A stretch of DNA of 64,000 nt from a virus (Duplodnaviria > Heunggongvirae > Uroviricota > Caudoviricetes): the IMG/VR virus record IMGVR_UViG_3300042922_000906, positions 40,054-104,053 of that record; one strand, given 5' to 3'. A program made the translations under genes and the position numbers. Positions 1,336 through 50,925 of this stretch are shown one piece after another. Each line of letters opens with the position of its first letter. Within the stretch, counting starts at the first letter, position 1. A model generated the notes under the pieces. The model saw nothing but the letters and a program-made list of their open reading frames with translations, did not search any database and was not told where the DNA came from.

Positions 1336-1746
1336 ATGCCAGACTTAAAAACTTATGACTTATTTATAAGTCACGCTTGGGATTACAATAGTGAATATTA
1401 TAATCTAGAAAGAATGTTAAAGGACGCACCATATTTTTATTTTAGAAATTATAGTGTACCTCAACATGATAGTTTGCAAGTTAATACCGACTATGCTCTT
1501 GATGATGGACTATGGAAACAAATTAGACCAGTAAACACTGTATTAATTTTATCTGGAATGTATTACAATCATAGAAAATGGATTCAGAGAGAAATAGAGA
1601 TTGCTCAAGCTCTAAATAAACCAATAATTGGTGTTATTCCTTGGGGGCAAGAGAGAATTCCATCGGAAGTAAGTGGAGTTGCGAAAACAATGGTTCATTG
1701 GAACACATCATCAATAATTGATGCAATAAGAAATTACTCAATATAA
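1336..1746 (+). CDS. standalone TIR-domain protein (ThsB-like, putative NADase)
   Basis: N-terminal beta-A motif YDLFISHAWDY. An alphaC-like motif RKWIQREIEIA gives the W-x3-E arrangement typical of catalytic TIR NADases. A beta-D-like PIIGVIPWG is also present. Length 136 aa. Confidence 0.6.
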   Translation: MPDLKTYDLFISHAWDYNSEYYNLERMLKDAPYFYFRNYSVPQHDSLQVNTDYALDDGLWKQIRPVNTVLILSGMYYNHRKWIQREIEIAQALNKPIIGVIPWGQERIPSEVSGVAKTMVHWNTSSIIDAIRNYSI

Positions 1747-2047: not shown

Positions 2048-2204
2048 TCTATATTACATTAACTAAATAAAATCCAAAATTTGTTATTTAAATGTTAATT
2101 GTTTTATTTCTGCCCTCTCTTATCCAAAATACTAACTATTCAATCCCTATTATATGCTGTACAATAATTTTGTAAACACTAATTTAGAGAGGATTGCAGC
2201 AGAT

Positions 2205-2924
2205 ATGGAAAAAATTAAAGTAATCGTTGCAGATGATAATGAAGTAATTTTAGAAGTCATGAAAGAATTAATTAACGGGCAAACGGATATGGAGGTTATA
2301 GGCGAATATAATAACGGGGAATCGGCTTATGAAGCAATAATAAAAATGCAACCTGATGTTATTATTTTGGATATATTAATGCCTATATGGGATGGATTAG
2401 AAGTATTAAAGCAGCTAAGAAATAATTATAACAAGAAAATTACTAAAATAGTTTTTTCAAGTGAGGCAAAAGAAGTTCAAAGAAAATTGGCAGATGGTGT
2501 TTTAGATGATGTATATTACTTTACAAAACCCTTTAAATTTGAGTTGTTTATTGAAAGAATTAAAATGGCATATTATGAGAGCAGTAAAAAGGATGCTGAA
2601 CATATAATTCATGAGTTTTTAGAAGGACTAGTGTTAACTGAATCAGGAAAGAAATATATATCACAAAGTGTAATGCTTCTGATCAATGATAGAACTTTAT
2701 TAACCAAGGATTTTTGTACAATTATCGCCAACAAGGAAGGGACTACTTGGAACAATATTCAAAGAAAAATAAGATATTCAATAGAACTTGCTTATAAGAG
2801 TTCTGAAAGTAGTAAATTGAATACTGCATTTGGACAATCAACATTAGGAACATTTAAAATGGACTTAAATATCAAAACTATGTTATTACATTTTAGTGAT
2901 AAGGTAAGTAAAATGATGGCCTGA
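2205..2924 (+). CDS. spo0A: Spo0A-like response regulator (receiver domain plus Spo0A_C-like DNA-binding domain)
   Basis: From the ATG at 2205 the N-terminus reads MEKIKVIVADDNEVILEVMKELINGQTDMEVIGEYNNGESAYEAIIKMQPDVIILDILMPIWDGLEVLKQL. This parallels B. subtilis Spo0A MEKIKVCVADDNREL...PDVLVLDIIMPHLDGLAVLERL, including the phospho-acceptor Asp. The C-terminus IIHEFLEG...RKIRYSIELAY...AFGQST resembles the Spo0A_C core (IIHEIGVP...RVERAIRHAIEVAW...LFGYT). Confidence 0.7.
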   Translation: MEKIKVIVADDNEVILEVMKELINGQTDMEVIGEYNNGESAYEAIIKMQPDVIILDILMPIWDGLEVLKQLRNNYNKKITKIVFSSEAKEVQRKLADGVLDDVYYFTKPFKFELFIERIKMAYYESSKKDAEHIIHEFLEGLVLTESGKKYISQSVMLLINDRTLLTKDFCTIIANKEGTTWNNIQRKIRYSIELAYKSSESSKLNTAFGQSTLGTFKMDLNIKTMLLHFSDKVSKMMA

Positions 2925-3395
2925 TGTAGATGGAAGAAACAGTAAAGAAACAATTAAAGTTTTTTAAATTAATTGTTTTAAGCAAAATGCCTATATGTAA
3001 ATGATTGCTTCTGAGTGGATGGTTATACTCAACTGTTTTACCTGTTTCTAACAATTAAGCCCTATTTACAGACAAAAGAAACTGATATACAATTGAAATT
3101 AATAAAGCTTTGAAACATAGTAACGGTACGATTTTGGAAAGATTATACTATAAAAAATTAAAGGAGTGAACTTTTAAATTATACATAAGGAATACAATTG
3201 TTAATCTTAAGAAATCGGGAATAAAACTTCCATTTACACTAATACTATGAAAATATTAACACCCTCAAATTTTATATCTTTACAATAATTTTGTTCGAGT
3301 ATATAATGGAAAAAGAACAAGTGTTCGATTTTATAAATAAGAGGTGAGCGAAAAATGTTATGTAAACTGTGGAAATATTGTAATAGGGGGTTAAA

Positions 3396-3970: not shown

Positions 3971-4432
3971 ATGAAAATTGTAATAGAGGAAAAAGAACTT
4001 AGGGAAAAATGTATAGAGGTAAATGATAGTGATAAGCCGAAAGAAATAAACGAATTAATAAGTGAAATGATCAAAACAATGATTGAAAATCAAGGCGTGG
4101 GAATAGCTGCTCCACAAGTAGGAATCAATAAAAGATTATTTATTGCGGTTATTGATAAAAAAATTGAAATATTTATTAATCCTGAAGTAATAGATAAAAG
4201 TGATGAAATGACAGAGGACACAGAAGGGTGTTTAAGTGTTCCTAACTGCTTTGGAACAGTCCCAAGACATAAAAATATTACAATAAAATATTGTAACGGC
4301 AGAGAGTTTATAGAACAAAAATTCGAAGGATTTAATGCTAGAGTGGTACAACATGAATATGATCATTTGGAAGGGATTTTATATACTGATAAGGCTGTTA
4401 ATATCCAAAGTAAAGAGTTGATTAAGGTTTAA
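3971..4432 (+). CDS. def: peptide deformylase
   Basis: All three PDF motifs are present: GVGIAAPQVG, EGCLSVP and QHEYDHLEG (HExxH). Confidence 0.85.
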   Translation: MKIVIEEKELREKCIEVNDSDKPKEINELISEMIKTMIENQGVGIAAPQVGINKRLFIAVIDKKIEIFINPEVIDKSDEMTEDTEGCLSVPNCFGTVPRHKNITIKYCNGREFIEQKFEGFNARVVQHEYDHLEGILYTDKAVNIQSKELIKV

Positions 4433-5681: not shown

Positions 5682-6116
5682 ATGAAATTAGAAGATGCAA
5701 TAGAAATAGCGGCAAAGGCGCATAGGGGTCAATTAGATAAAGCAGGGCAACCATACATACTTCATCCATTACACGTAATGATGCAATGTAGACACAATGA
5801 AGATGTAAGAATAGTGGCAGTACTGCATGATGTAATTGAAGATGGAGTACAAGGTTATAGAGACTTTATAATTAATACTGGATTTAGACAAGAAATTATT
5901 GATGCTTTGGATTGTTTGACTCATGATAAAAAAGAGGACTACTTTGACTATATCAGCAGAATTAAAACCAATTCTTTAGCAAAGGAAGTAAAACTTTTAG
6001 ATTTAAAACATAATTGTGATCTAGAAAGGTTGCAAAAAGTTACTTATATAGATTTAAAAAGAGTTGCTAAATATAAAAAGGCTATTAATATTTTATTAGA
6101 TATTGAAGAAGATTGA
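5682..6116 (+). CDS. HD-domain (p)ppGpp hydrolase-like protein (small alarmone hydrolase / Mesh1-like)
   Basis: AHRGQLDKAGQPYILHPLHV...AVLHDVIEDG matches the RelA/SpoT-type HD hydrolase signature (H...HD...ED). Length 144 aa. Confidence 0.6.
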   Translation: MKLEDAIEIAAKAHRGQLDKAGQPYILHPLHVMMQCRHNEDVRIVAVLHDVIEDGVQGYRDFIINTGFRQEIIDALDCLTHDKKEDYFDYISRIKTNSLAKEVKLLDLKHNCDLERLQKVTYIDLKRVAKYKKAINILLDIEED

Positions 6117-10486: not shown

Positions 10487-11023
10487 ATGAAAGCAACTGG
10501 AATAGTTAGACGTATAGACGATTTAGGAAGAGTTGTAATACCTAGAGAAACACGGAGAGCATTAAGAATTAAAGAAGGAGATCCTCTGGAGATTTTTATT
10601 GAAGATGGTGGAGTAATATTAAAAAAATACAGACCATTTCAAGATTTAATGGAATTTTCAGAGAAGTACGCAGAGTCTTTACATAAAACCTCTGGACATA
10701 TTTGTTTCATTACTGATAGAGATACAATAATTTCTGTAAATGGTACATCTAAAAGAGATTTTCTTGAAAAACCTATTAGTGAGAAGTTGGAAAATATTAT
10801 TGATGAAAGACATTTGTTTATCACAAATACCGAACAGATAAATATAGTTAATGGTCAGAGCTTGAATTTTCATTCTATCATAATAAAACCAATTATGTCT
10901 GAAGGTGAAACCTGTGGTTCAGTAATACTTGCAAGTACAGTTAATAATATAGTTTTTGGAGAAGTTGAAATTAAACTTGTTGAAAATGCAGCCGATTTTT
11001 TAGGTAAACAACTAGAAGATTAA
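10487..11023 (+). CDS. spoVT: SpoVT-like regulator (AbrB-type swapped-hairpin N-domain plus GAF-like C-domain)
   Basis: The N-terminus GIVRRIDDLGRVVIPRETRRALRIKEGDPLEIF is the AbrB/SpoVT DNA-binding fold. Total length 178 aa with a C-terminal sensory domain, matching SpoVT architecture. Confidence 0.75.
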   Translation: MKATGIVRRIDDLGRVVIPRETRRALRIKEGDPLEIFIEDGGVILKKYRPFQDLMEFSEKYAESLHKTSGHICFITDRDTIISVNGTSKRDFLEKPISEKLENIIDERHLFITNTEQINIVNGQSLNFHSIIIKPIMSEGETCGSVILASTVNNIVFGEVEIKLVENAADFLGKQLED

Positions 11024-13744: not shown

Positions 13745-14248
13745 ATGTACAAATTAATGAAAAAGTTAGCAGGTATAATTGCTGCATACAAAGTAAATCG
13801 CTTAAAGGATTTCTCAACATTAGAAAATGCTTTGTTAAAAAAGAAAAAGAAGCATGTAAAAGTAACTAGAGAAGATGCGTTGTCTGTATATAGTTATATT
13901 TATACTGGATTATTATTAGAATTATTTATTTTATTTGTAATATCTATAATTGCAATTATTCTTAATATAATTATACCAACAATTGCAATACTAATACCTT
14001 TTTTAGTATTTAGGTTTATATTTAAAGGCAATCATTTAAATGGTTATTATAGGTGTTTAATATTTACAACAAGTTATATAATTCTTGCCGCCTTTATTTC
14101 AAGTCTAATAATACCAGCAAGTTTAAATTTATTGTTAAAATTTATTTGTTATGTTAGTATAGGGCTAGGATTAGAGTTGATTTCATTGACGAGCTGGTTT
14201 AATAAAATTTTAGATCAGATAAATAGATTTAATATTAATAAGACATAG
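13745..14248 (+). CDS. AgrB-like polytopic membrane protein (tentative)
   Basis: Four hydrophobic helices. A His-x6-Cys arrangement (KGNHLNGYYRC) follows TM2, as in the AgrB catalytic H77/C84 pair. Confidence 0.3.
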   Translation: MYKLMKKLAGIIAAYKVNRLKDFSTLENALLKKKKKHVKVTREDALSVYSYIYTGLLLELFILFVISIIAIILNIIIPTIAILIPFLVFRFIFKGNHLNGYYRCLIFTTSYIILAAFISSLIIPASLNLLLKFICYVSIGLGLELISLTSWFNKILDQINRFNINKT

Positions 14249-20450: not shown

Positions 20451-20948
20451 ATGATAAAAATAGTTGAAGGAAATATATTAGATGCAAATGAAAAACTGAT
20501 ATGTCAGCAAGTGAACTGTCAGGGTGTAATGGGTTCTGGATTAGCAAAGCAACTTAAAGATAAATATCCAAAGTTATATCCTTCATATAAGAAATTTTGT
20601 GAAGGTTGTAAAGATAATAATCCAAGAACATTATTGGGAGAGTTTCAAACTGTGCCTATGCCTGATGGAAAAGTAATAGTTAATTTGTTTGGTCAATTTG
20701 ACTTTGGAAGAGATAAAAAATATACAGATTATGATGCATTAAGAAATAGTTTAGAAAATATATTATTTGTTGCAAAAGAATGTGGAAATGATTCAATTGC
20801 TATTCCTTATAATCTAGGCTGTGGATTAGCTGGTGGTGATTGGAATATAGTTTACAAAATAATTGAAGATGTGTTTCAAGATTATGATGTAACTATTTAT
20901 TACCTAATAGGTAATAAAAATCATGTTTTAAGCAGAGGATTAAAATAA
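20451..20948 (+). CDS. macro-domain protein (ADP-ribose binding / ADP-ribosyl hydrolase family)
   Basis: Begins GNILDANEKLICQQVNCQGVMGSGLAKQLK, the N..(V/A)N..G.MG.G(L/I)A signature of macro domains. Length 165 aa. Confidence 0.65.
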   Translation: MIKIVEGNILDANEKLICQQVNCQGVMGSGLAKQLKDKYPKLYPSYKKFCEGCKDNNPRTLLGEFQTVPMPDGKVIVNLFGQFDFGRDKKYTDYDALRNSLENILFVAKECGNDSIAIPYNLGCGLAGGDWNIVYKIIEDVFQDYDVTIYYLIGNKNHVLSRGLK

Positions 20949-21927: not shown

Positions 21928-22377
21928 ATGATGGATAAATTAACAAAATCACTTAAATGTTCTTTCTGTGGTAAATCTCAAAACCAAGTTAAGAGATTGA
22001 TTGCGGGGCCGGGTATTTATATATGTGATGAATGTGTAGATTTGTGTTCAGAAATTATTGAAGAAGAATCTGATATAAAAGTAGATGATTTACTTGATGA
22101 TGTACCGACTCCAAGCATAATTAAAAAATATCTTGATCAGCATGTTATAGGACAAGAAGAAGCTAAAAAATCATTAAGTGTAGCTGTTTATAATCACTAC
22201 AAAAGAATAAATTCTTTAAAGAAAAAGAAAAAATCAGATGATGTAGAAATTCAGAAAAGCAATATACTCATGATCGGTACTACGGGTATAGGAAAAACTG
22301 AATTGGCTAGAACAATAGCGAAAATGCTAAAACTTCCCTTTGCTATTGCTGATGCCACTACGTTAACGGAAGCAGGG
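21928..22377 (+). CDS. clpX: ClpX ATP-dependent protease ATPase subunit, exon 1 (zinc-binding domain plus Walker A)
   Basis: Zinc-binding domain [30 protein letters not shown] and Walker [17 protein letters not shown]. The frame ends ...[10 protein letters not shown] followed by TA, at the intron boundary. Confidence 0.8.
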
Positions 22378-23549
22378 TAAAGGTTTTAAAAAATATTTCA
22401 TATTTTATTCGCATTATTCAAAATTAAGGACGGTAAAGATATATAAGTGATATTGTAAACTATAATTCAGCTATGGAAGATTATATAAATAAACATTTGT
22501 CATTAAGCAAGTTAGCAGAAATTTATAAAATCTCTAGATATAAGCTAACAAAATTATTAAATAAGAATGGTATCAAGATTAGGAATCATAATATTGTTGA
22601 TGTGAACTATAAGGTTGATAATTGCTACTTTGATAAAATTAATACCGAATCAAAAGCGTATTGGCTTGGATTTATTTATGCAGATGGATGTATTAATACG
22701 AGTGGGAATAGTTTAAGATTTTCAATTGAATTAGCCGATTACGATTTTAACCATTTAAAAAAATTTAGAAAAGCAATTAAATCTAATCATCCAATTACTG
22801 AAAGACAAAATAGCAAAAGAAATACATGCAATATTTCAATTAATAGTCGAAACATTGTAAATAAACTAATAGACATTGGATGTGTTACAAATAAAACATA
22901 TAATGGATTTATAGACCCAAACATTTTAAAAACAACAGAAATGAAAATTGCTTTTATTAGAGGTTATTTAGATGGAAATGGTTATATTGACAAGGGTGAC
23001 AAGTATAGAATTGTATTCACATTACAATCAGAAAAATTGGTTGAAGATTTAAATATAATGATAAGAGAGTTAAAAATACATACAAGAATACAAAAAGATC
23101 AAGAATATTTTAGAATACATATTGAAAGAAAAAATGATTTTTATCAACTATTAAATCTAATATATAAAAATGCGAGTATATATTTAGATAGAAAATATGA
23201 AATATTTTTAAGAAGAACAATGCCGTTTGGTCAAGAAACTGACCAAATAATTAGTGCGAAATTAAGCTGGGAAGTCCTTCCAAACATGTACGAACATAAA
23301 GGTAATGTTTTAGGATAATCAGAACCGAAGGCTAATTTTAAAAGATTAGTCAGGGGCAGAGCATAGAGATTGAAATTATATATTCCATTAATATATAAAA
23401 TATAATATCTCCACGAGGTCGCACTACCTAACCTTATATTATAAAAATTTATGGAATTTGATGATTAATATAAGTATGGTAAAAAGATATGCCGAACAAG
23501 TTTGTAATGAACTTGAGGTAAAGATAAAAAGCTTTACGATAACAAATTG
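22378..23549 (+). mobile_element. group I intron interrupting clpX (approx. 1172 nt; 5' exon ends in U, intron ends in G)
   Basis: Joining 22377 to 23550 gives ...[41 protein letters not shown], matching the ClpX consensus across the junction. The insert carries a free-standing LAGLIDADG ORF and about 230 nt of 3' structured sequence. Confidence 0.6.
22473..23318 (+). CDS. LAGLIDADG homing endonuclease (double-motif, intron-encoded)
   Basis: Two dodecapeptide motifs are present: WLGFIYADGCI and IRGYLDGNGYI. Length 281 aa. Confidence 0.75.
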   Translation: MEDYINKHLSLSKLAEIYKISRYKLTKLLNKNGIKIRNHNIVDVNYKVDNCYFDKINTESKAYWLGFIYADGCINTSGNSLRFSIELADYDFNHLKKFRKAIKSNHPITERQNSKRNTCNISINSRNIVNKLIDIGCVTNKTYNGFIDPNILKTTEMKIAFIRGYLDGNGYIDKGDKYRIVFTLQSEKLVEDLNIMIRELKIHTRIQKDQEYFRIHIERKNDFYQLLNLIYKNASIYLDRKYEIFLRRTMPFGQETDQIISAKLSWEVLPNMYEHKGNVLG

Positions 23550-24352
23550 ATGTCGGAGATGACGTAGAAAACATATTGTTAAAACTTCTGCAAGCAGCGG
23601 ACTTTGATGAAGAGCTAGCACAGAAAGGGATTATCTATATTGATGAAATTGATAAAATTGCACGAAAAGGTGAAAATACATCAATTACAAGAGATGTTAA
23701 TGGTGAGGGAGTACAACATGCGTTATTAAAAATACTTGAAGGTACAGTAGCAAGAGTTCCACCACAGGGAGGACGTAAACACCCTCATCAGGAGTGTATT
23801 GAAATAGATACAAGTAATATTCTGTTTATTTGCGGTGGTGCATTTGATGGTATTGATAAGATACTTTCTCAAAAAAATAAGACTGAAAAGAGTATAGGGT
23901 TTGGTGCTTCAGTAAGCAGTAAAATAGAAAACAATAATACAAATTTATTAGAAACAATTGAACCTCATGATTTTGTGAAGTATGGTTTAGTGCCAGAATT
24001 AGTTGGAAGATTACCTGTGATAACTACACTGCAACCATTAGATAAAAATGCGTTATTAAGAATATTAACTGAACCTAAAAATGCAATAGTTAAGCAATAT
24101 CAGAAATTGCTTAATATTGACAATGTTAACCTCGAATTTGAAAATGATGCACTGGAGGAAATTGTTAATAAAGCAATTGAAAGAAAGACTGGTGCTAGAG
24201 GTTTAAGAGGAATACTGGAAAGTGTTATGAAGAATGTTATGTTTGAAATCCCCGATATAAAAAATGCAAAGAAAGTTGTTATTACAAAAGGTGTTGTATT
24301 AGGGCTAGAAAATTCAGTTATTTATGATAGTAAGAATAAAGTTATTGCATAG
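23550..24352 (+). CDS. clpX: ClpX ATPase, exon 2 (Walker B / sensor / C-terminal domain)
   Basis: [10 protein letters not shown] (Walker B), [11 protein letters not shown] and [11 protein letters not shown] all match ClpX. The exon starts at the A of the codon TAT. Confidence 0.8.
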
Positions 24353-24365
24353 AAAGGATAAAAAT

Positions 24366-24917
24366 ATGAAATCAGCTATATCTATTAATCAAAGTGATAA
24401 ACATGCAATCAAAACTTTAAGCGACCACCTTTATGACCTGATTATCAATTTGGATAAAAAGTTTAATAAAATCATATTTGTTTGTATCGGTACAGATCGA
24501 AGTACAGGCGATTCGCTTGCTCCAATAGTAGGTAGTAAAATACATAAGAAATACAATGTTTATGGAACTCTTGAAAATCCAGATCATGCAAAAAATCTAG
24601 AAGAAACTATGAATATGATTGATACTAAAAACAATCTCATTATTGCAATTGATGCCTGTTTAGGTAAGTCGGAGAATGTTGGTAATATTAATATTCATAA
24701 CGGTTCGCTAAAGCCTGGTTCTGCTGTTGGCAAAGATTTAATGGCGGTTGGTGATATTAGTATATCTGGAATAGTTAATTTCAGCGGCTTTATGGACTTC
24801 CTTATACTACAAAATACTAGATTAAGCATTGTAATGAATTTGAGTAATATTATATCAAAAGTTATTTGTAAAACTATGAAGCAAGTAAATAAGGAAAATA
24901 TAAAAAAGAGTGCTTAA
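24366..24917 (+). CDS. yyaC: YyaC-family sporulation protein (GPR-like protease fold)
   Basis: IIFVCIGTDRSTGDSLAPIVG...GTLENPDHAKN...IIAIDACLGK...GSLKPGSAVGKDL...ISISGIVNFSGFMDFLILQNTRLSIVMN aligns along its whole length with B. subtilis YyaC. The start is set at the ATG behind an AAAGGA SD. Confidence 0.8.
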   Translation: MKSAISINQSDKHAIKTLSDHLYDLIINLDKKFNKIIFVCIGTDRSTGDSLAPIVGSKIHKKYNVYGTLENPDHAKNLEETMNMIDTKNNLIIAIDACLGKSENVGNINIHNGSLKPGSAVGKDLMAVGDISISGIVNFSGFMDFLILQNTRLSIVMNLSNIISKVICKTMKQVNKENIKKSA

Positions 24918-32476: not shown

Positions 32477-32704
32477 AATAATATAGTATATCGTTTGTAG
32501 GTAACGTATAACCTTCAATCCATAAGGATGTAACAAAATGGCTAATGTGCATGACTTTGACTCATGAAATAGAGTTTCGATTACTCTCATCCTTGCCAAT
32601 AACATCGTGTAATTGCTGTTGTGCTTTGTTATTCATGTGTACCCTCCTTTTTTTGAAAGCGTTTGTAGGTATCGCTTGAGAAATCAGAATAACCTTCAGA
32701 TATA

Positions 32705-32780
32705 TTGCGGATTAGCCAAGTAGGTAAGGCAGTAGATTTTGATTCTATCATACTCAGGTTCAAGTCCTGAATCCGTAGCC
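32705..32780 (+). tRNA. tRNA-Gln (anticodon UUG), CCA encoded
   Basis: Hand-folded cloverleaf. Acceptor stem TGCGGAT/ATCCGTA with a U1:A72 pair and G73, as in bacterial tRNA-Gln. U8 is present. The D-arm has GG in its loop. Anticodon stem GTAGA/TCTAT with loop TTTTGAT (U33, UUG, A37). T-arm TCAGG-TTCAAGT-CCTGA. The 3' CCA lies at 32778-32780. Confidence 0.8.
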
Positions 32781-33156
32781 AATTAATTTAATAAAGGTGA
32801 CTGAAAGTTTAGGGTTAAGGCTTAGACAAAACCAATAAACGATGATGAGTAACGAGGGTGACAGCTTATATGTCTTGAATATACCTAAAGTGGGTATCTA
32901 GGAAGATTAGTTGAAATGATACATACTACTTCCAAAAACTATAATAATTTGACGTGATACTGTGTCTAGGATATTTTGAATATTACTAGAATCGTGAAAA
33001 TTGGAGTTACTAATTAAGTCGGCCGAAGTAGTCAATATAAGTGAACGTGCTATATAAGCTAAATGGTTCTACCTGTATTAAATTAAATACCATAAAATGG
33101 ACATTTTAATGTGTGATTAAATAAAATATTATACATAAGGAAGGAAATAGAAAAAA

Positions 33157-39078: not shown

Positions 39079-40383
39079 ATGAGTTATAACGCTTATATAA
39101 CAAAAATCAAGAATATAAGAAAACATACAAATGCAGACAGATTACAAGTAGGTGAATGTTTTGAAAACTTTGTTATTGTTAGTATGGATACACGAGACAA
39201 TGAACTAGGAGTGTACTTCCCAACTGATGGACGGTTAGGTACTGAATACTGTGAATCCAACAATCTACTAAGAAAGAAAGACGAAAATGGTAATAATATT
39301 GGCGGTTATTTAGAACCCGAAAAAAGACATATATCATCGTTGAAATTTCGTGGTGAAAAATCAGATGGTTTATTTATGCCACTAAAGAGCCTCGAAAACT
39401 TTTGTAATATTTCAGATTTAAAAGAAGGAGATATTATTACAACTTTAAATGGAACTTTAATATGTGAAAAATACATACCAAAATCTAATAGAAGAAATAA
39501 TGCTCTAACTAACAATAAAGAAAAGAAGAAGCTTATAGATAAAATATCTTATCCTATGTTTGAAGAACATATAGATACATCACAACTGGCATATAATTTG
39601 AATCAATTCAAACAGGGTGATTTATGTTATATAACTCTTAAAATGCATGGTACATCTCAAAGAACAGCTTATACTATTCAAGAGTTTCTAAAAAAAAGGA
39701 ATTTAATCCAAAGAATATTTAAGTTAAAAAATAAAATAAATAAGTCATGGCAATATGTTAGTGGCACAAGACGTTGTATTTTAATGAATTTTGATAATGG
39801 ATTTTATGGAAATGACTTGTTCAGAAAAACATTCCATGATTACTTTGTTGGGAAGTTATATAAGGGCGAAGAAGTGTTTTATGAAGTTGTTGGATATGTA
39901 AATGAAAATACTACCATCATGCCAGAATGCAATAATAAAAAAACCAATGATAAAGAATTTATCAAGCAATATGGAGAAACAACAAGATTTACATATGGAT
40001 GTGGTGTAGGTCAAAGTGATATTTATGTTTATAGAATAACCAAAACAGATGAAGATGGGAATATTGTTGAATATCCTTGGCATTTAGTCAAGTTGAGATG
40101 TGACCAAATGGGAGTTAAACATGTTCCAGAATTTGATAAATTTATATATTCTACTCAAGAAGATTTGATGAATCGAGTTAATGTATATGTAGATGGAACT
40201 GACCCAATAGGCAAAACTCATGTTAGAGAAGGTGTGGTTATAAGAATAGAAAACAGAGAAAAATTTTCTGCCTTTAAACATAAGAATTTTAATTTTAAAG
40301 TATTAGAAGGAATTATCAAAGCAAATGATGTTTTAGATATGGAGGAGGCTAATAGTGAAGAATTATCAACAAATAATGAATAG
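39079..40383 (+). CDS. RNA ligase (Rnl2-type nucleotidyltransferase motifs with an N-terminal OB-like domain)
   Basis: Motif I LKMHGTSQ (KxHG as in T4 Rnl2 KIHG), motif IV REGVVIRIEN (EGxV) and motif V AFKHKNF (K..K). The N-terminus IRKHTNADRLQVGEC is OB / tRNA-binding-like. Confidence 0.6.
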   Translation: MSYNAYITKIKNIRKHTNADRLQVGECFENFVIVSMDTRDNELGVYFPTDGRLGTEYCESNNLLRKKDENGNNIGGYLEPEKRHISSLKFRGEKSDGLFMPLKSLENFCNISDLKEGDIITTLNGTLICEKYIPKSNRRNNALTNNKEKKKLIDKISYPMFEEHIDTSQLAYNLNQFKQGDLCYITLKMHGTSQRTAYTIQEFLKKRNLIQRIFKLKNKINKSWQYVSGTRRCILMNFDNGFYGNDLFRKTFHDYFVGKLYKGEEVFYEVVGYVNENTTIMPECNNKKTNDKEFIKQYGETTRFTYGCGVGQSDIYVYRITKTDEDGNIVEYPWHLVKLRCDQMGVKHVPEFDKFIYSTQEDLMNRVNVYVDGTDPIGKTHVREGVVIRIENREKFSAFKHKNFNFKVLEGIIKANDVLDMEEANSEELSTNNE

Positions 40384-41155
40384 ACTTCAGGAGCATTATA
40401 GTGAAGTTGAAAATATGGGATATGAAATTGTAGGAGTGTTTCTTCAAGGTAGCCAGAATTATGATTTAGCTTATAAAAATAGTGATATAGATAGTAAGGC
40501 TATATTGCTTCCAAAATTCAATGATTTTGTATTAAATAATAAGGTAGTAAGCATAACTCATGTGATGAAAAATAATGAACATATAGATTTGAAAGATATT
40601 AGATTAATGTTTGATTGCTTTAAGAAACAGAATATAAACTTTGTGGAAATTCTATTTTCAAAATATAAAATTATTAATCCTAAGTATGAAAAGTTTATGC
40701 AAAAGCTATTTGACAATAATGAAAAGATAGCAAGATATAATAATTATGCTTCTTTAAACTGCATCAGTGGAACTACTATGGAGAAGTATAAGGCACTAGA
40801 ACATCCATATCCTACACTTATAGATAAGATTGAAAAATATGGGTACGACCCAAAACAGTTGCATCACATTATCAGACTTAATGAATTTATCAAAAGATAT
40901 CTAGCAGGAGAAAAATATTCCGATTGTTTAGTATCGAAGAATAAAGAATATTTAATTGGAGTTAAGAAAGGTATTCACACTTTAGAAGAAGCAAGAGCAT
41001 TAGCAAAGACACTATCTGATGATACTTATCAAATAAAAACTAATTACATGAATAATAATCCAGTTCGAATTGTTAAAGAATGTGAAGATATTTTAAATGG
41101 TGTCTTGTTGGATATAATGAAGCACAACTTTAAATGTGAGTTAAGTGAGGTTTGA
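40355..41155 (+). CDS. pol-beta-superfamily nucleotidyltransferase
   Basis: GVFLQGSQNYDLAYKNSDIDSKAI gives the hG[GS] ... DxD arrangement. Confidence 0.5.
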   Translation: MKNYQQIMNRLQEHYSEVENMGYEIVGVFLQGSQNYDLAYKNSDIDSKAILLPKFNDFVLNNKVVSITHVMKNNEHIDLKDIRLMFDCFKKQNINFVEILFSKYKIINPKYEKFMQKLFDNNEKIARYNNYASLNCISGTTMEKYKALEHPYPTLIDKIEKYGYDPKQLHHIIRLNEFIKRYLAGEKYSDCLVSKNKEYLIGVKKGIHTLEEARALAKTLSDDTYQIKTNYMNNNPVRIVKECEDILNGVLLDIMKHNFKCELSEV

Positions 41156-42059
41156 AATGAATAAGTTTATTATGATGGTTGGACTTCCTGCAAGTGGTAA
41201 ATCTACTATTGCAGAAGAACTATCGAGAGAAGAAAATGCTATTGTTCATGCTTCAGATAGATTAAGGAAAGAGTTATTTGGAGATGAAAATGCAAATGAT
41301 AAAAATGTTGAGCTATTTAAAGAGTTACATAAGAGAATTAAAAATGATTTAAGTGAAGGCAAAAATGTAATTTATGATGCTACAAACATAAACTATAAGC
41401 GCAGGAAAGCTTTTCTTGAAGAATTGAAGAACATCAGTTGTAAAAAGATTTGTTATTTAATTGCTACTCCATATGAAGAGTGTTTGGAGCAAAATAAACT
41501 CAGAGAAAGATTCGTTCCAGAGCATGTAATTAAAAAAATGTATCTTGGTTTTTATATTCCTCAATATTATGAAGGTTGGGATAAAATTGAAATCGTTTAT
41601 ACTAGAAATAGTGGGAAACGAATTACAGATTTATTGCAACGTTTAAAAGAAATAGACCAAGAAAATAAACATCACACTTTAACTATAGGAAATCATTGTT
41701 CACAATGTTTAAATTACATTGAAAAGAAAGTAGATGACATTAATTTATCTTATGCAGCTTTATTGCATGATATAGGGAAGGAGTTTACCAAAGAATATAA
41801 AAACTCAAAAGGCGAAGATACTATCGAAGCACATTATTTTCAACATCACTTAGTATCTGCTTATGATTCACTATTTTATTTGGATGGTGCTCAGAACTCT
41901 AACTTTATTTTAATAGAAACAGTTGCTTTAATTATGTGGCATATGCAACCATTCTTTATAGAAACTGAAAAAGCCAAGAAAAAGTTTATAAGATTGGTTG
42001 GTCAAGAGTTTTATGATAAGTTGATGATTTTACATGAGGCAGATAAGATGGCTCATTAG
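41145..42059 (+). CDS. P-loop polynucleotide kinase fused to an HD phosphohydrolase (Pnkp-like RNA end-healing enzyme)
   Basis: N-terminal Walker A MMVGLPASGKST and VIYDATN, as in T4 Pnk. The C-terminal HD domain reads HH...ALLHDIGK...H...D. Confidence 0.6.
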   Translation: MRFEMNKFIMMVGLPASGKSTIAEELSREENAIVHASDRLRKELFGDENANDKNVELFKELHKRIKNDLSEGKNVIYDATNINYKRRKAFLEELKNISCKKICYLIATPYEECLEQNKLRERFVPEHVIKKMYLGFYIPQYYEGWDKIEIVYTRNSGKRITDLLQRLKEIDQENKHHTLTIGNHCSQCLNYIEKKVDDINLSYAALLHDIGKEFTKEYKNSKGEDTIEAHYFQHHLVSAYDSLFYLDGAQNSNFILIETVALIMWHMQPFFIETEKAKKKFIRLVGQEFYDKLMILHEADKMAH

Positions 42060-48609: not shown

Positions 48610-48636
48610 TGATTTTATGTGACGAAGGGAGAAAAT

Positions 48637-49419
48637 ATGATAAAAGTTAATGGTTTTCTTGTTGGAAACGAGTGTTTTCCTAATAATGAAAGGATATTAA
48701 AAATAAATGATTTTGGTGATAAATACTTTGATATTGAATTTAAGTACGAAACAGATATTGACATTTCTATTTTAATAATGGTCAAGAAGTACCTAGATGA
48801 TACATATCCTAATTCATACATACATTTAATAATGAAGTATGTTCCATACTCAAGAATGGATAGAAAAATTGAAGGATATATGTTCAGCCTTAAGTATTTT
48901 TGTCAGCTAATAAATGATTTACATTTTAGTGATGTTCAGGTATTAGATACACACTCAAATGTAACAACTGCTTTACTTGATAGATGTACGGAAATGAGCA
49001 TTCAAGATAATATCAGTAGAATATTTTCAAATATTCATATTGATTATGTTTTTTATCCTGATAACGGAGCAATGAAAAGATATAGTGAAATTCTTAAAAT
49101 TCCAGTACCATACTTCTACGGAAATAAGAAAAGAAATCTTAATACTGGTGAAATTGTCGGCTATGAATTAGTAGATTGTCCAGACATTAAGGATAAAGAT
49201 ATTTTAATAATAGATGACTTGTGTGCAAAAGGATTTACATTCTATAATGCAGCACAAAAGTTAAAAGACAATGGAGCTAATAATATTAATTTATATGTAT
49301 CTCATTGTGAAAATTCTATTTATCAAGGACAATTACTGAAATCTGATCTAATTAAGACCATATTTACAACTGATTCAATTTTAACTGATTGGTCAAGTAA
49401 AATATTATATAATGTCTAA
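48637..49419 (+). CDS. ribose-phosphate pyrophosphokinase-family enzyme (Prs-like; candidate ADP-ribose pyrophosphokinase of a phage NAD+ pathway)
   Basis: KYVPYSRMDRK parallels the Prs segment IPYFGYARQDRK. ILIIDDLCAKGFTF is the C-terminal PRPP-binding loop. The start is set at the ATG behind a GAAGGGAG SD. Confidence 0.65.
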   Translation: MIKVNGFLVGNECFPNNERILKINDFGDKYFDIEFKYETDIDISILIMVKKYLDDTYPNSYIHLIMKYVPYSRMDRKIEGYMFSLKYFCQLINDLHFSDVQVLDTHSNVTTALLDRCTEMSIQDNISRIFSNIHIDYVFYPDNGAMKRYSEILKIPVPYFYGNKKRNLNTGEIVGYELVDCPDIKDKDILIIDDLCAKGFTFYNAAQKLKDNGANNINLYVSHCENSIYQGQLLKSDLIKTIFTTDSILTDWSSKILYNV

Positions 49420-49440
49420 CAAGAATAAGAGGAGAAAAGA

Positions 49441-50925
49441 ATGAATAAAAATTATATCTATCCAGCAACATTATTGTGTGACTTTTACAAGGTGTCTCAT
49501 AGAGAACAATATCCAAAGGGAACAGAGATTGTATACAGTACATGGATACCAAGAGCAAGTAGAATAACTGGAATTGACAAGGTAGTTGCTTTTGGGTTTC
49601 AAGCATTTATTAAAGAATATATCATTAAATATTTTAATGACAATTTCTTTAATAGGCCAAAGAATGAAGTAATAGAAGAATACATAAGGGTTATAAAAAA
49701 TACATTAGGTATACAAAATCCAGATGCTAGTCATATCGAAGAATTATATGATTTAGGGTATATGCCTATTAAGATTAAAGCGGTTAAAGAAGGTACTTTA
49801 GTTCCTTTGCGAGTACCAATGTTGACAATTGAAAATACTGAACTTAGATTCTTCTGGTTAACAAACTATCTGGAAACACTCATGTCTTGTGCTATGTGGA
49901 TACCATCCACCAGTGCAACAATAGCATTTGAATATAGAAAAATACTTGAAAAATATGCAAAGGAAACTGTAGGTAATATTGAAGGAGTTCAATTCCAAGG
50001 TCATGATTTTAGTATGAGGGGTATGGGTGCATTAGATTCAGCAAAAGTTAGTGGAGCTGGACATTTACTTTCATTTGTAGGTACAGATACAATTCCTGCA
50101 ATACTATTTACCGAAGAATTCTATAATGCAAATATTGAACAAGAATTAATAGGCACTTCAATACCAGCTACCGAACATTCAGTACAATGTGCTTATGGAA
50201 GAGACGAGTTCTCATCTTATAAAAGAATTATTACTGAAATATATCCAAGTGGTTTTGTTTCAATTGTTAGTGACACATGGGACTTGTGGAAGGTATTAAC
50301 CGATGTTGTTGCTAAATTAAAGACAGAGATAATGTCTAGAGACGGTAGAGTAGTAATTAGACCAGATAGCGGTGATCCAGTAAAAATTATTTGTGGAGAC
50401 CCCAAATCAGATAATGAACTTGAAAGAAAAGGTGTGGTTGAAGTTCTATGGGATATTTTTGGTGGAACTATCACAGCGAAAGGCTATAAGCAGCTTGAAA
50501 CACATATCGGATGTATTTATGGAGATGCCATAACCCTTGAAAGGGCAACCGCAATATGCGAAGGGTTAAAAGCTAAAGGATTCGCTTCAACAAATACAGT
50601 GTATGGTATTGGCTCATTTACATATCAGTATAATACAAGAGATACTTTTGGATTTGCTTTGAAATCTACGCATGTTGTCATTGATGGTATAGATCAAAAT
50701 ATTTATAAAGACCCTGCGACAGATAAAGATAAGATTAAAAAATCATTGATAGGTAGAGCGTGTGTATTAAATGACAGAGGGTATATTCATACCATAGACG
50801 GATTATCAATAGTACAACAGAGTAATTGTAGAGCGGATATTCTTGAAGATCTTTTTGTTGACGGTGAATTACTGAGAGATGAAAACTTTATCGATATTAG
50901 AAATAGATTGTTATCAAATCTTTAA
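49441..50925 (+). CDS. nadV: nicotinamide phosphoribosyltransferase family (NadV/Nampt-like)
   Basis: 494 aa. The N-terminus YPATLLCDFYKVSHREQYP reads as the conserved Nampt start, and GTDT and related motifs are present. Confidence 0.75.
   Translation: MNKNYIYPATLLCDFYKVSHREQYPKGTEIVYSTWIPRASRITGIDKVVAFGFQAFIKEYIIKYFNDNFFNRPKNEVIEEYIRVIKNTLGIQNPDASHIEELYDLGYMPIKIKAVKEGTLVPLRVPMLTIENTELRFFWLTNYLETLMSCAMWIPSTSATIAFEYRKILEKYAKETVGNIEGVQFQGHDFSMRGMGALDSAKVSGAGHLLSFVGTDTIPAILFTEEFYNANIEQELIGTSIPATEHSVQCAYGRDEFSSYKRIITEIYPSGFVSIVSDTWDLWKVLTDVVAKLKTEIMSRDGRVVIRPDSGDPVKIICGDPKSDNELERKGVVEVLWDIFGGTITAKGYKQLETHIGCIYGDAITLERATAICEGLKAKGFASTNTVYGIGSFTYQYNTRDTFGFALKSTHVVIDGIDQNIYKDPATDKDKIKKSLIGRACVLNDRGYIHTIDGLSIVQQSNCRADILEDLFVDGELLRDENFIDIRNRLLSNL

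Follow-up and report, generated by a model that had tools for sequence, protein, structure and literature searches.

The window analysed here, a 64-kb stretch of phage DNA, encodes a protein in which a receiver domain with a complete phospho-acceptor pocket is combined with a strongly diverged effector domain. Both domains are of Spo0A ancestry, but whereas the effector is the better conserved half among real Spo0A proteins, in the phage protein it is the receiver, so that the pattern is reversed. Judged from its sequence, the protein is a Spo0A-derived paralogue and not a Spo0A orthologue, because it fails the threshold of the NCBIfam Spo0A equivalog model TIGR02875. The best explanation, to which we assign a probability of roughly 45%, is that the gene encodes an orphan regulator that would be phosphorylated by the sporulation kinases of the host and would have an altered DNA output. 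Phage-carried sporulation regulators are known; the novelty is that the published spo0A homologues are without a receiver whereas this protein has one.

The gene is located deep inside an element resembling Clostridium phage c-st and the SPbeta-like phages, not in a host flank. The GC content of the window is 26-32% (28.7% overall), nearly all ORFs are on the plus strand, and the GC content of the gene (28.7%) equals that of the phage. The window encodes a DnaB-type helicase 58% identical to the c-st helicase, a primase, an ATP-dependent DNA ligase, RNA-repair enzymes, a nicotinamide phosphoribosyltransferase with a PRPP synthetase, two tyrosine recombinases, a MazF-like protein and two tRNA-Gln. 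Comparison by tblastn revealed synteny with the c-st genes CST027-030 (YopQ/YopR) and CST053-059 (YorF, helicase YorI, primase YorJ) at 23-58% identity. The background is the same as that of c-st (NC_007581) and the SPbeta-like phages with respect to the YopQ/YopR and YorF-YorI-YorJ modules and the long one-stranded early region, although tblastn detected no Spo0A-like gene in c-st (E <= 1e-5) and there is no similarity to the window at the nucleotide level. Phage c-st, the nearest phage relative, carries the botulinum C1 toxin gene. Megablast with 20 kb or 24 kb of window sequence as the query gave no match in the phage and plasmid collections. A Logan contig 100% identical to the window continues upstream for another 7.8 kb with small one-stranded genes. 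A PD-(D/E)XK nuclease, the DNA polymerase III alpha subunit and a RecD2-type helicase are encoded downstream of the window, and the window proteins were placed on a 140,832-bp JGI contig. Phage-type genes accompany the gene on either side, for 7.8 kb in the upstream direction and for more than 70 kb in the downstream one. The first-pass annotation had recognized that a location in flanking host DNA would undermine a phage-borne regulator; instead, phage genes were found on both sides, with c-st synteny and a composition equal to that of the phage. No virion genes were found in the portion examined, and the designation as a phage rather than a phage-plasmid therefore rests on the synteny with c-st.

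The whole ORF spans positions 2154-2924 on the plus strand and contains an upstream in-frame ATG at 2154. The ATG at 2205 was preferred because the GAGAGGA ribosome-binding site (Table 1), the gene call and the start of the relative P0008 (MDRIKV), described below, agree; the same gene call is present on Logan contig SRR35179700_12689. The promoter scan detected no sigma-70-like promoter directly upstream of the gene on the plus strand, and no intrinsic terminator was found. The non-coding gap that follows contains a strong promoter-like site (11/12) at 3279-3307 for the next gene; the gap has no Rfam match and its folding is not unusual (z = -1.2).

Table 1. Positions of the Spo0A-like gene, its domains and adjacent features in the window.
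Feature	Position	Strand	Basis and remarks
Spo0A-like response regulator gene	2205..2924	+	ORF list, Response_reg and Spo0A_C; 239 aa plus stop
Ribosome-binding site GAGAGGA	2187..2193	+	11 nt 5' of ATG 2205; read from sequence
Receiver domain (aa 6-119)	2220..2561	+	PF00072, 70.4 bits; Spo0A receivers are the best PDB matches
Predicted phosphorylation site Asp56, codon GAT	2370..2372	+	Aligned with the Spo0A phospho-Asp (VLVLDIIMP vs VIILDILMP)
Shortened inter-domain connection	2562..2627	+	Continuous predicted helix aa 112-139, receiver helix 5 into effector (AlphaFold model)
Effector domain, Spo0A_C fold (aa 126-239, six helices)	2580..2921	+	PF08769; 1lq1/1fc3 matches
Recognition-helix equivalent (aa 182-199, WNNIQRKIRYSIELAYKS)	2748..2801	+	Alignments, column conservation, helix 182-199 in model
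Non-coding gap 3' of gene	2925..3395		471 nt; one of five gaps >250 nt in the window

A search with the Pfam profiles Response_reg and Spo0A_C, the check proposed with the original annotation, placed both domains above their gathering scores. Response_reg (PF00072) matched residues 6-119 with 70.4 bits (E 1.8e-19), and Spo0A_C (PF08769) matched residues 142-212 with 37.5 bits (E 2.6e-9) against a gathering score of 25. The combination of a receiver and a Spo0A_C effector in one polypeptide is that of a Spo0A orthologue, and both the score and the six-helix Spo0A effector fold support membership of the C-terminal domain in PF08769. The protein was also matched, at E 1.4e-28, by phrog_37855, a PHROG family of unknown function with a profile length of 278.

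The best solved structures for the receiver were the Spo0A receivers 9phz, 1dz3/1qmp and 5wq0 (E 1e-20 to 1e-14). The AlphaFold model of the whole protein had a mean pLDDT of 85, and its receiver fold resembles 1qmp and 5wq0 with an rmsd of about 2 Å. In an alignment with 67 Spo0A proteins, where columns at least 85% conserved were counted as conserved, 22 of the 26 such columns in the receiver are kept. The phospho-acceptor pocket is complete as in Spo0A (D10, D11, D56, S86 and K108, with P109 as well), and the D11, D56 and K108 columns are invariant in the 69 aligned sequences. These results substantiate the retention of the phosphorylatable Asp in VIILDILMP that was first read from the sequence. 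Also retained are E21, M59, P60 and the DG motif D63-G64, while position 86, Thr or Ser in the family, is Ser as in C. difficile. Mutation of D10, D11, E21, D56, M59, S86 or K108 in C. difficile Spo0A results in less sporulation, and H61 and A87 also matter in that protein (10.1101/2022.02.07.479450). The phage receiver departs from Spo0A at A35, H61 and A87, which are replaced by Tyr, Ile and Glu; these three substitutions could change how the receiver docks to the phosphodonor of the host. The claim that the first 70 residues follow B. subtilis Spo0A nearly position by position was overstated, the ungapped identity being about 53% over the first 72 residues.

The fold search with the whole protein was dominated by receiver domains, and the effector was therefore modelled separately. 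The AlphaFold model of the effector alone (pLDDT 87, pTM 0.82) comprises six helices and in a Foldseek search of the PDB matched only 1lq1 and 1fc3 (TM 0.65-0.81), with all other chains at E > 1, a fold match that is partly circular, as Spo0A proteins made up the alignment used for modelling. The same two structures were the only sequence matches of the C-terminal 114 residues alone (E 9e-5 and 5e-4), the next match having an E value of 0.86. The proposal that the C-terminal domain follows Spo0A_C is borne out by these matches and by the PF08769 score, which sets the domain apart from the generic winged helix that had been named as the contrary outcome. The initial observation stands well above chance, and its reading holds in outline.

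Conservation in the effector is far lower, with only 19 of the 55 conserved Spo0A columns kept. The recognition helix TTWNNIQRKIRYSIELAY was aligned against the Spo0A sequence TTxSRVERAIRHAIEVAW; compared position by position, S-R-V-E-R-A-I-R-H-A-I-E-V-x-W of Spo0A corresponds to N-N-I-Q-R-K-I-R-Y-S-I-E-L-A-Y of the phage protein. Kept in the helix are R187, R190, I189, I193 and E194, while the Glu that is 100% conserved in the Spo0A helix is Gln186 in the phage protein and His in P0008. We take the columns of this Glu and the two Arg to be E213, R214 and R217 of B. subtilis Spo0A, the base-reading residues described with structure 1LQ1; these columns are 99-100% conserved among the aligned Spo0A proteins. 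The effector does not carry the Spo0A signatures PAHIKGYxYLR, ITKxLYPxIA, SRVERAIRHAIEVAW and KPTNSEFI, with HIKGY, LYP and KPTNSEF missing. In the counterpart of the sigma-A-activating helix, F209-G210 is retained. The DNA-recognition helix had been singled out as divergent in the first-pass annotation. This description stands as far as the Glu to Gln186 replacement and the other helix changes are concerned, but R187 and R190 are kept and the divergence spans the whole effector. Because the effector has lost residues that are never changed in real Spo0A, altered DNA specificity or an altered contact with RNA polymerase is expected from the sequence, rather than a faithful copy of the Spo0A output.

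The effector is also where two other explanations meet the evidence. In one, the protein acts purely by interference, blocking or delaying host sporulation as a phosphate sink, a poisonous partner in heterodimers with host Spo0A or a non-activating occupant of 0A-like boxes, with the result that the host would stay vegetative and productive for the phage. An intact, Spo0A-like receiver is consistent with this role, as is the retention of R187 and R190 alongside loss of the C-terminal signature KPTNSEF...ADKLRL, which in Spo0A is presumably required for transcription activation. Phage homologues of sporulation sigma factors, moreover, lowered spore yield, as cited in PMC10294663. However, the receiver would suffice for a sink or decoy, whereas the effector is full-length, well folded according to the model, and has derived residues that are conserved in two phages; further, the change of the invariant Glu and of other helix positions argues against plain occupancy of 0A boxes. 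Pure interference is possible but, in our estimate, unlikely. In the other explanation, the protein promotes sporulation as a surrogate Spo0A and, by driving the host to sporulate, secures the entry of the phage genome into the spore. The architecture is complete for such a role and F209-G210 is kept in the sigma-A-activating helix equivalent; that phage genomes become trapped in spores is well established, phi29 being an example. Nevertheless, most effector positions that are more than 95% conserved in Spo0A are lost, making faithful activation of the regulon unlikely, and we consider a sporulation promoter very improbable.

The connection between the domains is shortened, as first noticed from the sequence: the linker, counted between two conserved columns, comprises 16 residues compared with 27-52 (median 37) in the 67 Spo0A proteins. 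That of P0008 comprises 32 residues, and the short linker is therefore peculiar to the protein studied here rather than shared across the lineage.

The relation to true Spo0A was evaluated with TIGR02875, which matched the protein in two stretches with 110.7 bits, below the curated cut-off of 200; the true Spo0A on MT835504, the positive control, scored 364.2 bits. The idea of a viral copy of the master regulator gives way to that of a paralogue derived from it. Identity of the phage receiver to those of the 67 Spo0A proteins was 34.9%, compared with a mean of 47.3% among the 67, and identity of the effector was 24.8% compared with 69.5%. No bacterial Spo0A above 37% identity was found in a HMMER scan of 1.84 billion representatives. 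The phage protein and bacterial Spo0A (TIGR02875; 1QMP, 1DZ3, 1FC3, 1LQ1) have in common the two-domain layout, the phospho-acceptor pocket, the six-helix HTH effector and the two arginines. In contrast, the phage protein has a linker of half the length, Gln in place of the invariant Glu, and has lost HIKGY, LYP and KPTNSEF. The genomic setting also differs, a phage here and the chromosomal spoIVB-spo0A locus there. The chromosomal spoIVB/recN context of Spo0A was not found around the gene, which has phage genes on both sides; the canonical spoIVB context was seen in control locus L015 and in 5 IMG/VR loci.

The HMMER scan recovered a sole close relative, P0008, a protein of 252 residues with 50% identity over the full length. 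The other matches were a fragment of the protein itself and then ordinary Spo0A at 30-37% identity. A word-indexed search of 5.8 billion clusters yielded nothing closer than 30% identity, and a repeat of the search, with P0008 added to the query alignment, detected P0008 alone. In a metagenome scan, dominated by a generic N-terminal pattern, no closer relative was present among the matches listed, and an exact 40-mer of the gene had no match in the IMG/VR search. The lineage is very rare, with two members found. P0008 is encoded on IMG/VR contig UViG_3300042922_001431, identical to a scaffold of an 'Eubacterium sp.' MAG, in a different, temperate phage of ~35 kb. The order of genes in that phage is tail proteins, tail fibre, endolysin, holin, an excisionase-like gene, a tyrosine integrase and the Spo0A-like gene, followed on the other strand 3' of P0008 by a serine integrase and a weak HTH_3 repressor-like gene, and then by replication genes. 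This site would be the usual place of prophage-expressed genes in temperate phages of Firmicutes.

P0008 and the phage protein have in common 12 derived residues at which both depart from Spo0A, among them C171, W182, N183, K188, Y197, S200 and MDLN.K in place of KPTNSE. These common residues indicate that the lineage has preserved the rewritten effector rather than letting it decay. High divergence and the rarity of the lineage would fit a captured host gene that is decaying and without function, but the ORF is intact with all catalytic residues retained, an unrelated phage has an intact homologue of 50% identity, the composition is fully phage-adapted and the model is confident. A decaying gene is scarcely credible.

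Known spo0A homologues of gut phages are truncated, consisting of the effector only, without a receiver (Schwartz et al. 2023, mBio, PMC10294663), and no published phage-borne Spo0A homologue with a receiver was found in the literature search. Matches of the effector model among the viral proteins in BFVD carry the annotation 'Spo0A C terminal' and have lengths of 99-195 residues, so that the remark that few such cases are documented was accurate. The phage protein resembles these homologues in being derived from Spo0A, in residing on a phage of a spore-forming host and in having a Spo0A_C-type effector. It differs from the truncated class in that those proteins are effector-only and predicted to be signal-independent, whereas here the receiver is complete and predicted to be phosphorylatable. 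The effector is also far more diverged, with 9-18% identity to the BFVD matches.

Full-length matches that might have been taken as further phage examples were rejected. The one GenBank entry examined among those labelled 'UNVERIFIED Bacteriophage sp.', MT835504, is bacterial chromosome with the gene order ispA-dxs-tlyA-nadK-recN-spoIVB-spo0A. Eleven further IMG/VR contigs contain full-length canonical Spo0A, and at least 5 of the 11 have spoIVB directly upstream and are therefore host DNA.

Two other kinds of phage system are comparable. The development of phi29 is tied to host Spo0A through 0A boxes, and phage Rap-Phr systems act on the phosphorelay. Both likewise couple phage development to the phosphorylation state of host Spo0A, but they read or modulate the Spo0A of the host, whereas here the Spo0A-like receiver and output belong to the phage. 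Phage-borne homologues of the sporulation sigma factors (sigF/sigG) reduced spore yield, as cited in PMC10294663. They are likewise diverged host sporulation regulators that could reprogram a developmental network; the difference is that they belong to another protein family, act downstream of Spo0A and have experimental support.

Searches for DNA targets were negative. The consensus 0A box TGTCGAA was found 3 times in the window compared with 3.25 expected, the level of chance. Two copies of the variant TGTTCGA lie within 30 bp of each other (3292 and 3322), but overall the variant shows no enrichment, and a 14-mer upstream of the gene and of the next gene was, partly by our own estimate, within chance for AT-rich sequence. 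A repeat search for binding sites yielded nothing convincing and no enriched variant motif.

No histidine kinase was found among the ORFs scanned in the window and the Pfam lists of ~18 kb of flanks, together about 82 kb of the 140.8-kb contig, of which the remaining ~60 kb could encode one. In clostridia, orphan kinases act on Spo0A by direct phosphorylation (PMC5749712). These results bear on a further explanation, that the protein is the Spo0A-derived output of a phage circuit unrelated to sporulation, such as the choice between lysis and lysogeny, served by another kinase that may be phage-encoded. A TIGR02875 score far under the threshold (110.7 vs 200), the heavily rewritten effector, the occurrence of divergent Spo0A-like paralogues in ordinary bacterial contexts as well (P0169) and an AgrB-like quorum-sensing gene on the phage all point in this direction. 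Against it, the receiver is nearest to Spo0A (110.7 bits for TIGR02875 vs 72 bits for the next regulator family), no kinase was found in about 82 kb, and the gene co-occurs with SpoVT and YyaC. A circuit of this kind is improbable.

The phage encodes a near-equivalog of SpoVT (10487-11023; 230.2 bits against a cut-off of 235.9) and a homologue of the YyaC spore protease (24324-24917; 182.9 bits against a cut-off of 84.9). Also encoded are a clpX gene interrupted by an endonuclease ORF, a SpoT-like HD domain protein (hydrolase), a 3D-domain protein and an AgrB-like protein (quorum-sensing). These genes make manipulation of dormancy more plausible. Within the phage, SpoVT and YyaC are near their bacterial families whereas the Spo0A-like protein is far from its own.

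In the preferred explanation, that of an orphan regulator responding to host kinases, Asp56 of the receiver would be phosphorylated, most plausibly by the host's own sporulation kinases. Phosphorylation would activate an effector that has the Spo0A fold and is rewritten at most of the positions that read the 0A box and contact the sigma factor. The host signal to enter sporulation would in this way be rerouted to different promoters, either of the phage or of the host, and competition with host Spo0A for phosphoryl groups would be an automatic by-product. Three parts of this scheme are inferred by us: the source of the phosphoryl group, the DNA targets and whether sporulation is raised or lowered. 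More tentatively, the two proteins may represent a small, new lineage of phage regulators in which the Spo0A receiver is kept for host kinases and the effector has acquired a new specificity, present independently in a large c-st/SPbeta-like clostridial phage and in a 35-kb temperate phage and, in the large phage, forming together with SpoVT, YyaC, ClpX and the alarmone-hydrolase-like protein, a toolkit for hijacking dormancy.

If this explanation is correct, both phages could sense the commitment of the host to sporulation and reprogram either their own development or the sporulation pathway. Sporulation is an escape of the host from phage infection. With its receiver retained, a phage regulator of this kind would become the first candidate case of a virus plugging directly into the phosphorylation network of the host's sporulation decision, and it offers a natural experiment in which the input half of Spo0A is conserved and the output half rewritten. 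Should clostridial spore formation be changed by such a regulator, this would have a bearing on the persistence and transmission of toxigenic species.

The phage that carries the Spo0A-like gene encodes a second sporulation transcription factor, a SpoVT homologue. The score of 230.2 bits was slightly below the TIGR02851 cut-off of 235.9, and the protein matched Pfam SpoVT_C with an E value of 2e-39. Compared with the Spo0A-like gene, the SpoVT homologue has diverged much less. A homologue of the spore protease YyaC was identified with 182.9 bits against a TIGR02841 cut-off of 84.9. The positions of these and other features are listed in the table.

Features of the window and of one bacterial contig (strand and remarks where recorded)
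Feature	Position	Strand	Remarks
8xMP and ThsB-type TIR genes	839-1318 and 1336-1746	+	shortly 5' of the Spo0A-like gene
TGTTCGA, two copies	3292-3298 and 3322-3328	+	30 bp apart
Peptide deformylase	3971-4432
Small HD_4 protein	5682-6116	+	matches hydrolase part of RelA/SpoT, E 6e-12
SpoVT homologue	10487-11023	+	full-length; AbrB-type N-terminal domain and SpoVT_C
Probable AgrB-matching membrane protein	13745-14248	+
Macro-domain protein	20451-20948
Split clpX and endonuclease ORF	21928-22380, 22473-23318, 23576-24352	+	endonuclease ORF: phrog_4645; clpX profile coverage in text
YyaC spore-protease homologue	24324-24917	+	DUF1256, E 4e-55
tRNA-Gln (UUG), two genes	32524-32598 and 32706-32781	+	180 nt apart
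RNA ligase, nucleotidyltransferase, polynucleotide kinase	39079-42059
PRPP synthetase and nicotinamide phosphoribosyltransferase	48619-50925	+	adjoining
P0169, divergent Spo0A-like paralogue	5993-6784 of L097 (ENA ERZ27245261 k141_1495931)

Of the gene pair preceding the Spo0A-like gene, the first member encodes an octameric membrane protein (8xMP, E 2e-36) and the second a ThsB-type TIR protein (E 1e-13); the pair may constitute a Thoeris-like defence or counter-defence module. On the other side of the Spo0A-like gene, two copies of TGTTCGA, a motif distinguished from the 0A box TGTCGAA by a single shifted base, bracket the -10 element of the strong promoter-like site of the downstream gene. 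The arrangement may be due to chance since the motif is not enriched in the window, where 4 copies were found and 3.1 expected.

The clpX gene is present in two parts, the N-terminal covering profile positions 3-157 and the C-terminal positions 167-409. The location of the endonuclease ORF between them points to an intron that carries a homing endonuclease; a search with Rfam at the gathering threshold revealed no group I intron. The HD_4 protein may be an alarmone hydrolase. One ORF of the window matched Pfam AgrB, a processor of quorum-sensing peptides, with an E value of 1.4e-14; it is probably the tabulated membrane protein, based on the His and Cys seven residues apart in its predicted sequence (NHLNGYYRC). 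Neither AgrD nor AgrC was identified. The PRPP synthetase and nicotinamide phosphoribosyltransferase are an NAD+ salvage pair, and the tRNA-Gln genes are located within a long non-coding gap, of which the window has few.

Outside this phage, spo0A is annotated on the 13.6-kb plasmid record NZ_CP142397.1 from Sedimentibacter sp. The divergent paralogue P0169, with identities to Spo0A proteins of about 29% in the receiver and about 38% in the effector, adjoins TetR and BlaR/BlaI-type genes in an ordinary bacterial context, indicating that divergent Spo0A paralogues are not limited to phages. The GenBank record MT835504.1 ('UNVERIFIED: Bacteriophage sp.'), part of the phage collection, was rejected as a source of phage spo0A; it is bacterial chromosome containing ispA, dxs, tlyA, nadK, recN, spoIVB, spo0A, glgA and the pot operon. 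Similarly, the spoIVB-spo0A pair is present on five IMG/VR contigs (L104, L105 and L108-L110). Counts of 'phage spo0A' drawn from collections of this kind would come out inflated.
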